This document shows, piece by piece, positions 60,042-60,758 of a DNA stretch of 64,000 nt (position 1 is its first letter; every line of letters starts with the position of its first letter). This DNA comes from Escherichia coli (GTDB lineage: Bacteria > Pseudomonadota > Gammaproteobacteria > Enterobacterales > Enterobacteriaceae), in assembly GCF_013315695.1 (NCBI RefSeq), contig NZ_CP054353.1, one strand, 5' to 3'. Below the pieces are notes generated by a model. The model made no database searches and was not told where the DNA came from. It saw only the letters and a program-made list of their open reading frames with translations. The translations under genes were made by a program, and so were the position numbers.

Positions 60042-60758
60042 CTACAGGTTAACCCGAACCATATTAAATTCATAATCTTTTAACTGCTCAGACCCGATCA
60101 CCAGAAATCTGCCATTACCTGACTTAAATGATTTTGATAAAACAAGAGTGGTATCATATCTGGCTAAAACATAATACCACCCGTCATTATAATTCATCAT
60201 TTCATATTCTTTCTTGAATTGCGGCTTGTAAAAGCCAACAGAAAATGAAAAAACCCAGAAATATATGACAAAGCCGACAAAACATATTTCAGAAATATGT
60301 TTTTTTACAAAGATACTCTCTGAAAAACATGATGCTGAAACACGGTGGCCACAGGTTCTTATAAGAAAAACAAGAATAAGGGATACCGCTACTGATAAGG
60401 TAAGAAGTTTTAATGCCAGATGATTCTTTAGCACAGAGAACTCAATCACCACCGGAACAAACAATAAGAATGAGGCAAGAAAAAGTCTGAAAAAGCTCAA
60501 TTCATGCATGCTTGCTTTGTTTTTTATTCCAAGAAAGAAAAGTACTCCCGCGCCCCATGAGAGAAACAGGATGACCATTATAGTAATTGCATGAAACAGG
60601 CTTCTTGCAACATCGTCAATACCTGCACTGACAACCCACCATGGGAAACCATAATAAAAAGAGACACCCCACCCGTAAAAATATGCACTTCCCCATCCGA
60701 GACATCCCATATAAGCCACAAATAAGGAAGAATTTTTGAGCAACGCGTTGCTGTTCAT
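60042..60758 (-). CDS. Polytopic integral membrane protein of unknown function
   Basis: 238 aa, very AT-rich, Trp/Tyr/Phe-rich with multiple predicted TM helices. Confidence 0.5.
   Translation of the reverse strand: MNSNALLKNSSLFVAYMGCLGWGSAYFYGWGVSFYYGFPWWVVSAGIDDVARSLFHAITIMVILFLSWGAGVLFFLGIKNKASMHELSFFRLFLASFLLFVPVVIEFSVLKNHLALKLLTLSVAVSLILVFLIRTCGHRVSASCFSESIFVKKHISEICFVGFVIYFWVFSFSVGFYKPQFKKEYEMMNYNDGWYYVLARYDTTLVLSKSFKSGNGRFLVIGSEQLKDYEFNMVRVNL

Follow-up and report, generated by a model that had tools for sequence, protein, structure and literature searches.

Salmonella STM1630 is a 717-bp gene between steB and sseJ (PMC6785131 supplement). It is expressed in medium inducing Salmonella pathogenicity island 2 (SPI-2) and in macrophages in strain 4/74, it has an H-NS binding site within it, it is silenced in sequence type (ST) 313 by two promoter single-nucleotide polymorphisms (SNPs), and its signature-tagged mutants were reported to be attenuated in calves and chicks (PMC6785131). 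The gene also figures among those from transcription profiling of avirulent regulator mutants, and is down-regulated in D23580 within macrophages. Here we consider a gene at 60042-60758 of a 64,000-nucleotide stretch of Escherichia coli DNA (contig NZ_CP054353.1 of assembly GCF_013315695.1; hereafter the window), which lies downstream of the regulatory gene papX on a pheV island and encodes a protein of the same family as STM1630. Further members are tfpB of the Moraxella pilin inversion region and a late gene of phage 434 and of the E. coli prophage CP-933K. The original papers on Moraxella tfpB are those of Fulks in 1990 and of Rozsa and Marrs in 1991, and the gene is not known to have been assigned a function.

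An intact gene of the TfpB/STM1630 family

The window protein is 100% identical to RefSeq WP_001087508.1, for which recent records give the name "STM1630 family protein"; older records have "hypothetical protein". A word-indexed search returned 113 homologues, every one of which (113/113) carries the Pfam family PF27470 (precomputed, PF27470.1), whose Pfam name is TfpB; the representative P0001, 238 aa long and 99% identical to the window protein, carries it as well. NCBIfam release 20 gave no match for the protein, and our local Pfam-A gave none for it or for any of 35 aligned members. Neither set contains a matching model (the local Pfam-A lacks PF27470), so the Pfam assignment depends on the hit precomputed for the representative at 99% identity. 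A second homologue, P0055, is 51% identical over 100% of the query (E 2.9e-73) and is encoded divergently from a Sif/GDSL-lipase gene, which is sseJ; P0055 is therefore STM1630, in agreement with the published position of that gene. BLASTP against Moraxella bovis TfpB gave 24% identity over an alignment of 236 aa (residues 10-233; E 2e-19). We regard membership in the TfpB/STM1630 family as secure. The preliminary description of this locus, made by eye, had held that no family could be assigned, which proved wrong once search tools were used; both protein and family are in fact already catalogued, and the gene is no new kind of element.

The family extends well beyond the Enterobacteriaceae. 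An exhaustive phmmer search over 1.84 billion cluster representatives found only 57 relatives. The ten full-length distant clusters looked up, at 23-33% identity, come, where named, from Neisseria, Avibacterium, Actinobacillus, Pasteurella and Gallibacterium, and a scan of one genome per species adds Aggregatibacter, Glaesserella, Rodentibacter, Conchiformibius and four species of Moraxella. Where a source organism is named, it belongs to animal-associated Enterobacteriaceae, Pasteurellaceae, Neisseriaceae or Moraxella. Two short contigs (about 3 kb; L009, L010) assigned to Veillonella and Lachnospiraceae metagenome-assembled genomes also carry copies, at 59% identity to the window protein; these contigs are probably mis-binned Enterobacteriaceae DNA.

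The open reading frame (ORF) is a real, intact gene under selection and no chance product of base composition. With the local base composition, a stop-free frame of 238 codons has a probability of about 7e-8 per start, or an expectation of about 0.01 per window, and the ratio of nonsynonymous to synonymous substitution rates (dN/dS) among homologues is 0.07-0.19. Its GC content is 0.374 (0.37 at third codon positions) against 0.501 for the whole window, and about 20% of the residues are aromatic (F 11.3%, W 2.9%, Y 5.5%); together with the five helices seen in hydropathy and in the AlphaFold model described below, these values bear out the earlier characterisation of the product as an AT-rich, aromatic-rich polytopic membrane protein. 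Low GC is common to the copies compared: in the five genes (the window gene and those at L002, L003, L004 and L011) it is 36-38% in each. The relatives in Pasteurellaceae and Moraxella may hint at a low-GC lineage as the source.

In this form the gene is uncommon, and as a family it is widespread. The frame of the window gene is intact and 99-100% identical in 57 complete genomes, and its exact form occurs in about 1% of complete E. coli genomes. At lower stringency, blastn detects the family in 1197 of the 5426 complete E. coli genomes (about 22%), at a median of two places per genome; most of the matches sampled are at about 68% DNA identity, as the CP-933K copy is, and the O157 genomes sampled have two places each.

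A single-gene module in unrelated settings

Lambdoid phages and prophages provide one recurrent home. In phage 434 the family gene, CPT_434_68 (59% identity), is the first gene past a Q82-like antiterminator and the terminator tR', and is followed by a DUF3927 gene and then by genes for a small membrane protein, a SASA-family esterase and a holin; the same region carries lpxR and an iss-like gene. In prophage CP-933K of strain EDL933 the order is Q, the family member (EDL933_RS04265; 59% protein identity), DUF3927, holin and RrrD. The window protein also matches PHROG family phrog_1521 (E 3.5e-89, residues 17-236). The interval from Q to the holin is the one in which Shiga toxin (Stx) phages carry stx.

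Elsewhere in E. coli the gene stands among mobile-element debris and virulence genes. In enterotoxigenic E. coli (ETEC) a copy with 57% identity (L004-L007, 3987-6714) is divergent from eltAB and about 3 kb from the gene for the heat-stable enterotoxin STb, within a region rich in insertion sequences (IS). The ETEC gene is listed in 1285 blocks of a genome collection, and the arrangement beside eltAB may be common in ETEC. A plasmid of a bovine E. coli carries a copy that is 79% identical at the DNA level, among IS fragments. CFT073 (L039, 3338-4231) retains only a frameshifted piece, a pseudogene, with IS fragments to either side; a tRNA-Arg gene adjoins it and iroB is about 2.7 kb away. This piece could be the remnant of a Q-to-holin region of a lambdoid prophage.

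Outside the Enterobacteriaceae the settings differ again. In Glaesserella parasuis (L023, 8001-11017) the family gene lies tail to tail with three co-oriented genes, the nearest about 250 bp away; the middle one is cdtB (E 5e-125), so the three are probably a cdtABC toxin operon. In Avibacterium, Pasteurella and Neisseria arctica the gene stands alone amid housekeeping genes, and two Pasteurella species agree in which genes these are; Aggregatibacter actinomycetemcomitans has two copies per genome at different housekeeping loci (L017/L022 and L018/L021). The homologue of M. bovis and M. lacunata is framed by two inverted pilin 3' segments, and the gene for the Piv recombinase adjoins it in M. 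lacunata and M. equi; this homologue is tfpB, the ORF long known from the tfpQ/tfpI inversion region. TfpB has 261 aa in M. bovis. It has 195 or 197 aa, or survives as fragments, in M. lacunata (L028, 7971-8558), M. equi (L029, 7799-8392) and M. oblonga (L030, 4067-4740), where its shortened or fragmentary state indicates that it is dispensable.

What these loci have in common is the gene itself. DNA similarity of the window locus to those of phage 434, EDL933, E. albertii, ETEC and Salmonella is limited to the coding sequence (CDS), and no flanking DNA common to the window locus and other family loci was found. Since the similarity ends at the CDS, the mobile unit is the bare gene, and a mobile cassette with common flanks is rejected on the same ground. 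An obligatory partnership with DUF3927 is rejected as well, because the DUF3927 gene was detected at prophage-type loci only. So is a general link to type IV pilins: a prepilin-motif scan found no pilin gene within 8 kb in any non-Moraxella locus scanned, and pilins lie close by in Moraxella only. These comparisons show that the family travels as one AT-rich gene, which has come independently to lie in the late region of a prophage, on an enterotoxin plasmid, in virulence islets, in the pilin inversion segment of Moraxella, and at housekeeping loci of Pasteurellaceae and Neisseriaceae.

Predicted architecture of the protein

An AlphaFold2 model computed on a 35-sequence alignment reaching down to 23% identity has a predicted local distance difference test score (pLDDT) of 80.6 and a predicted template modelling score (pTM) of 0.73; an earlier model from 26 close homologues was poor (pLDDT 60) and improved when distant homologues were added. 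The model consists of five long hydrophobic helices (residues 3-36, 47-76, 89-111, 116-139 and 149-181) followed by a small C-terminal domain of five beta strands, in which Y195, Y196, L198 and F218 are conserved. Conservation is highest from the outer half of helix 1 through the following loop to the start of helix 2 (codons 10-54), where the consensus is SS..AY.G.LGWGSAYFYGWG.S.YYGFPWW.V..G.D.IARSL. Across the 35 sequences this takes the form of a family motif, AY..GWG...YYG[FY]PWW...IARSL, accompanied by a C-terminal YY.L....F. Residues A25, Y26, W30, W40, A51, G175, Y195 and F218 are invariant down to 23% identity.

The topology prediction places the N-terminus in the cytoplasm. Family-wide, lysine plus arginine counts are 8.2 in the N-terminus and loops 2 and 4 and 2.1 in loops 1 and 3, a bias which, by the positive-inside rule, would put the N-terminus on the cytoplasmic side and both the conserved loop and the beta domain on the periplasmic side. 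The periplasmic placing of these two elements is thus a prediction from charge distribution and the model, and because helix 1 is only weakly hydrophobic, the protein may span the membrane four or five times. No Asp, Glu, His, Cys or Lys is conserved family-wide in the alignment, which argues against catalysis.

In AFDB50 the model matches family members from Salmonella, Neisseria, Haemophilus, Glaesserella and Moraxella with template modelling scores of 0.7-0.9; all AFDB50 matches are uncharacterised, and beyond the family they take in similarly built proteins of about 250 aa from other phyla. Searches of the PDB by sequence, profile and fold gave nothing past generic helical bundles, there was no match at E < 0.07 among the viral structures of BFVD, and no transporter, enzyme, defence or solved-structure match emerged from NCBIfam, Pfam-A, PADLOC and the PDB. 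The idea that the ORF is a truncated piece of a transporter, raised at the outset as a way in which the preliminary description might fail, is rejected, as the protein is as long as complete members of its family and had no match in any transporter family.

The papX neighbourhood and the island

The gene lies on the same strand as papX, whose product is a MarR-family regulator, and the two are separated by the 492 bp from the papX stop to the ATG (Table 1), close to the 490 bp estimated originally. The same early reading had implied a tie to PapX and the pap operon, to be checked by co-occurrence, and this did not hold up. A query spanning papX and the gene has matches in 1386 of 5426 complete E. 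coli genomes, and only 60 of these cover both genes, on which count we reject a shared function with PapX. In most of the papX-bearing genomes sampled the match stops at window position 60800 (query position 759), where a recurrent IS1 junction is found: in JJ1887 an IS1 abuts the junction and the window gene is gone, and in MS 196-1 an IS1 lies between papX and an intact copy. The X-gene loci of other pap, sfa and foc clusters diverge shortly past the X gene. The adjacency to papX is one island variant and a by-product of island mosaicism, not a conserved pair, and the absence of the gene beside papX in many genomes probably came about through IS1-mediated deletion. The value of the check is therefore mainly negative, in that it removes both the PapX linkage and the truncated-transporter idea.

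Within the window the core chromosome (yqgA) gives way to tRNA-Phe, an integrase gene and then the island, which comparison with JJ1887 identifies as occupying the pheV site beside yqgA. The order along the island is a phosphoethanolamine-transferase gene, an FxLYD gene, IS debris, the window gene, papX, an IS3-family pseudogene and papG, which extends past the window end. Annotation of the flanks is that of RefSeq on an identical stretch (L001), in which window position equals locus coordinate plus 51899; it confirms the IS debris that had been noticed on either flank. As to whether the gene could be the cargo of an IS, the flanking fragments carry different names, and papX stands between the gene and the IS3-family pseudogene.

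The 492-bp spacer presumably holds the gene's own promoter. A consensus scan of it found no convincing sigma-70 site, and a weak terminator-like hairpin follows papX (61215-61194).

Table 1. Positions of the family gene, its predicted parts and its surroundings in the window.
Feature	Position	Strand	Basis or remark
TfpB/STM1630-family protein CDS, predicted inner-membrane protein	60042..60758	-	complete, ATG start, 238 aa + stop; ORF listing
Shine-Dalgarno-like AGGGG	60764-60768	-	5 nt before ATG; read from sequence
Five long hydrophobic helices, codons 3-181	60216..60752	-	AlphaFold2 model and hydropathy
Small five-stranded C-terminal beta domain, codons 184-235	60054..60209	-	model, alignment
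Most conserved block, codons 10-54	60597..60731	-	outer half of helix 1, loop, start of helix 2
Recurrent IS1 junction	60796..60804		about 42 bp upstream of ATG
AT-rich spacer, papX stop to ATG, 492 bp	60759..61250	-	
papX, MarR-family regulator, 183 aa	61251..61802	-	RefSeq; NCBIfam MprA-like match E 5e-35
IS3-family pseudogene	61969-63134		beyond papX, other flank; RefSeq annotation of identical stretch
IS debris 3' of the gene	58788-59471 and 59507-59719		frameshifted transposase pseudogene and integrase-core fragment; RefSeq
Integrase gene	48905-50170		adjoins tRNA-Phe, marks island boundary
tRNA-Phe	48632-48704		island boundary

Several neighbouring features are recorded here in their own right. 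The phosphoethanolamine-transferase region (CptA/EptA-like; 51829-55227) includes a 354-aa piece at 51829-52893, after which comes a block of high GC (0.59-0.64 at 54000-55000); in L001, the annotated twin locus, an IS66-family element (ISEc22) interrupts the transferase gene. At 58142-58489 (+), within the same AT-rich island stretch as the window gene, a gene encodes a small protein that has a signal peptide and an FxLYD domain (E 4e-18). The IS debris contains a full-length match to Rfam isrC, an Hfq-binding small RNA, at 59330-59452 (-), scoring 97 bits against a gathering threshold of 39; this Rfam family may in practice detect an IS end. At 61969-64000 the pap operon is decayed, with the IS3-family pseudogene between papG and papX, and in L001 an IS1 breaks a fimbrial subunit gene further up the operon.

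Possible function

We tentatively favour, with a probability of about 0.4, a reading in which the family protein is a non-enzymatic inner-membrane protein that binds a partner on the periplasmic face of the envelope and serves as a host-colonisation or envelope factor of the lysogenic-conversion type. The protein would be embedded in the inner membrane by five helices, its N-terminus being cytoplasmic. An invariant belt of aromatic and glycine residues at the outer ends of helices 1 and 2 would lie on the same side of the membrane as the beta domain, and belt and domain could together, at a guess, form a binding surface facing the periplasm. As no acidic, His or Cys residue is conserved, binding of an envelope partner seems most likely, rather than catalysis or solute transport; the partner might be a lipid-linked molecule or a membrane protein. 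By analogy with STM1630 the gene may be silenced by H-NS in culture and switched on in the host, and its role could be that of an accessory envelope or colonisation factor. The colonisation part of this proposal draws on the expression and attenuation data for STM1630, on the animal-associated hosts and on the virulence genes that often lie beside it: eltAB, cdtB and sseJ, in phage 434 lpxR, the iss-like gene and the SASA-family esterase gene, and pap or pilin genes elsewhere.

Several considerations weigh against this proposal. Experimental data on the family all concern Salmonella STM1630, and not the E. coli protein, and the Salmonella phenotypes are weak or inconsistent: deletion of STM1630 leaves growth in lysogeny broth (LB) unaffected, and in 4/74 it slightly raises, rather than lowers, replication within macrophages (PMC6785131). 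In a screen the STM1630 deletion mutant was hypermotile, and it is not among the seven mutants confirmed by scar-only deletion; since hypermotility is not among the confirmed follow-up phenotypes, we have not used it as evidence for a PapX-like role in motility. The SPI-2-type expression of STM1630 could come from the divergent regulatory region that it has in common with sseJ. The predicted topology depends on charge counts and a model, helix 1 is only weakly hydrophobic, and the association with virulence genes may reflect only common residence in acquired AT-rich DNA. Finally, the gene is shortened or fragmentary in three Moraxella species, a pseudogene in CFT073 and mostly absent beside papX, and thus seems readily dispensable. 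Literature searches on TfpB with enterotoxin or prophage, on TciB/DUF3927 and on other Salmonella locus tags found nothing relevant.

The main rival, which we consider somewhat unlikely, is that the family serves phage superinfection exclusion or abortive infection, with a prophage inner-membrane protein blocking DNA entry or collapsing the membrane and the island copy being a stranded defence gene. The PHROG match fits such a role, as does the resemblance of most sampled E. coli matches, in DNA identity, to the CP-933K copy between Q and holin, a position also taken by the gene in 434. So does the character of the gene, which stands singly, is AT-rich, encodes a membrane protein, is patchy in distribution and often decayed, and has two places in each O157 genome sampled. 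PADLOC, however, found no match for the window protein or for three island neighbours, and a first gene past tR' implies late lytic expression rather than expression in the lysogen, unless it has its own promoter. The housekeeping-gene contexts in Pasteurella (where two species agree in the genes alongside), Avibacterium and Neisseria, and the response of STM1630 to host-like conditions also speak against exclusion. It is unlikely, too, that in this genome the gene is a silent passenger, left over from a prophage or islet and still present only for want of deletion so far. IS debris on both flanks, the lack of a convincing promoter in the consensus scan of the spacer, the 60 of 1386 papX-query genomes that hold both genes, the IS1 42 bp upstream in both genomes inspected, the mere pseudogene fragment in CFT073 and the loss of STM1630 expression through promoter SNPs in ST313 are all compatible with that explanation. 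Against it stand the intact frame, 99-100% identical in 57 complete genomes, the good ribosome-binding site that has been kept, and the strong purifying selection on the family.

Two further explanations take their lead from particular homes of the gene. A factor accessory to type IV pilins or pseudopilins, similar to TfpY or FimB, would bind the hydrophobic N-terminal helix of pilin-like proteins in the inner membrane and help or tune filament assembly. The founding tfpB does lie inside the Moraxella inversion segment, 186 bp downstream of one pilin segment and co-oriented with it, and the gross plan of N-terminal helices and C-terminal beta domain in about 240 aa resembles that of TfpY-like proteins. 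We find this very doubtful, as no pilin lies within 8 kb at the scanned non-Moraxella loci, none is annotated near the window gene, and tfpB is shortened in the M. lacunata and M. equi genomes examined. Moreover, the helices number three in TfpY-like proteins, and their domain is of another, beta-alpha-beta kind, as opposed to five helices and a five-stranded sheet here, and among the 57 phmmer relatives none of ten distant clusters looked up (0/10) came from Pseudomonas, Acinetobacter or Dichelobacter. Most improbable of all is an antiholin-like regulator of lysis timing in the prophage homes, with no role for the island copy. It would account for the place of the gene in 434 and CP-933K, first in the late transcript, with a class II holin and an endolysin encoded a few genes further on (in 434 a pinholin and a signal-anchor-release (SAR) endolysin), and it would suit a membrane protein with a probable periplasmic domain; intact, conserved copies occur, however, in Salmonella, the ETEC plasmid, Pasteurellaceae, Neisseria and Moraxella with no lysis cassette.

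A broader reading, which we rate as quite unlikely, is that TfpB/STM1630 proteins form an unrecognised class of autonomous envelope modules that settle repeatedly beside exported virulence factors and have a shared job at the periplasmic face of the inner membrane. The Q-to-holin site, eltAB, cdtABC, sseJ, the expressed Moraxella pilin and the end of the pap operon would be its examples. If it were true, that job could be to gate the release or assembly of such factors, or to exclude phages that use the same envelope routes.

Comparison with described systems

The window gene is much like STM1630 (SL1344_1560) in general character. Both encode 238 aa, at 51% identity over 100% of the length and with PF27470, both are AT-rich (36.8% GC in STM1630), and both are lone genes in horizontally acquired virulence islets. 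They differ in that STM1630 is divergent from sseJ, whereas the window gene is downstream of papX; DNA similarity between the two loci is found in the CDS only, and the expression and phenotype data belong to the Salmonella gene. The phage copies, CPT_434_68 of 434 and EDL933_RS04265 of CP-933K, are full-length members of the same family at 59% protein identity; they lie between Q (after tR') and the holin and are followed by DUF3927, whereas the window copy has no Q, DUF3927 or lysis genes nearby. M. bovis TfpB is homologous over its whole length and has the same N-terminal aromatic motif and the C-terminal YY.L...F pattern, although in Moraxella tfpB lies between inverted pilin segments, beside Piv in M. 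lacunata and M. equi.

The pilin-accessory proteins TfpY, TfpZ and FimB of Pseudomonas, Dichelobacter, Acinetobacter and Neisseria are alike in size, short cytoplasmic N-terminus, helices and periplasmic beta-rich C-terminus. No catalytic domain is recognisable in them, and they are believed to work through binding to pilins. In contrast to the window gene, theirs are always encoded beside a pilin gene, and phmmer, at its sensitivity, gave no sequence link between them and the window protein. TfpY has three helices, a mixed three-stranded sheet with a beta2-alpha-beta3 arrangement, a helix and a three-stranded antiparallel sheet (PMC11841053).

Small, AT-rich, single-gene additions to prophages that encode envelope proteins offer a looser comparison, in which the window protein has neither sequence nor fold similarity to the proteins concerned. 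Among the functional analogues are Bor/Iss, Lom and LpxR, which are envelope extras of lambdoid prophages, and the exclusion membrane proteins HK97 gp15 and P22 SieA.

Taken together, these comparisons join in one family genes that we found described only separately: Moraxella tfpB, Salmonella STM1630, the late gene of 434 and CP-933K, and the genes adjacent to the heat-labile enterotoxin (LT) and cytolethal distending toxin (CDT) loci. It is a family widespread in prophages and virulence islands, with blastn relatives in about 22% of complete E. coli genomes.

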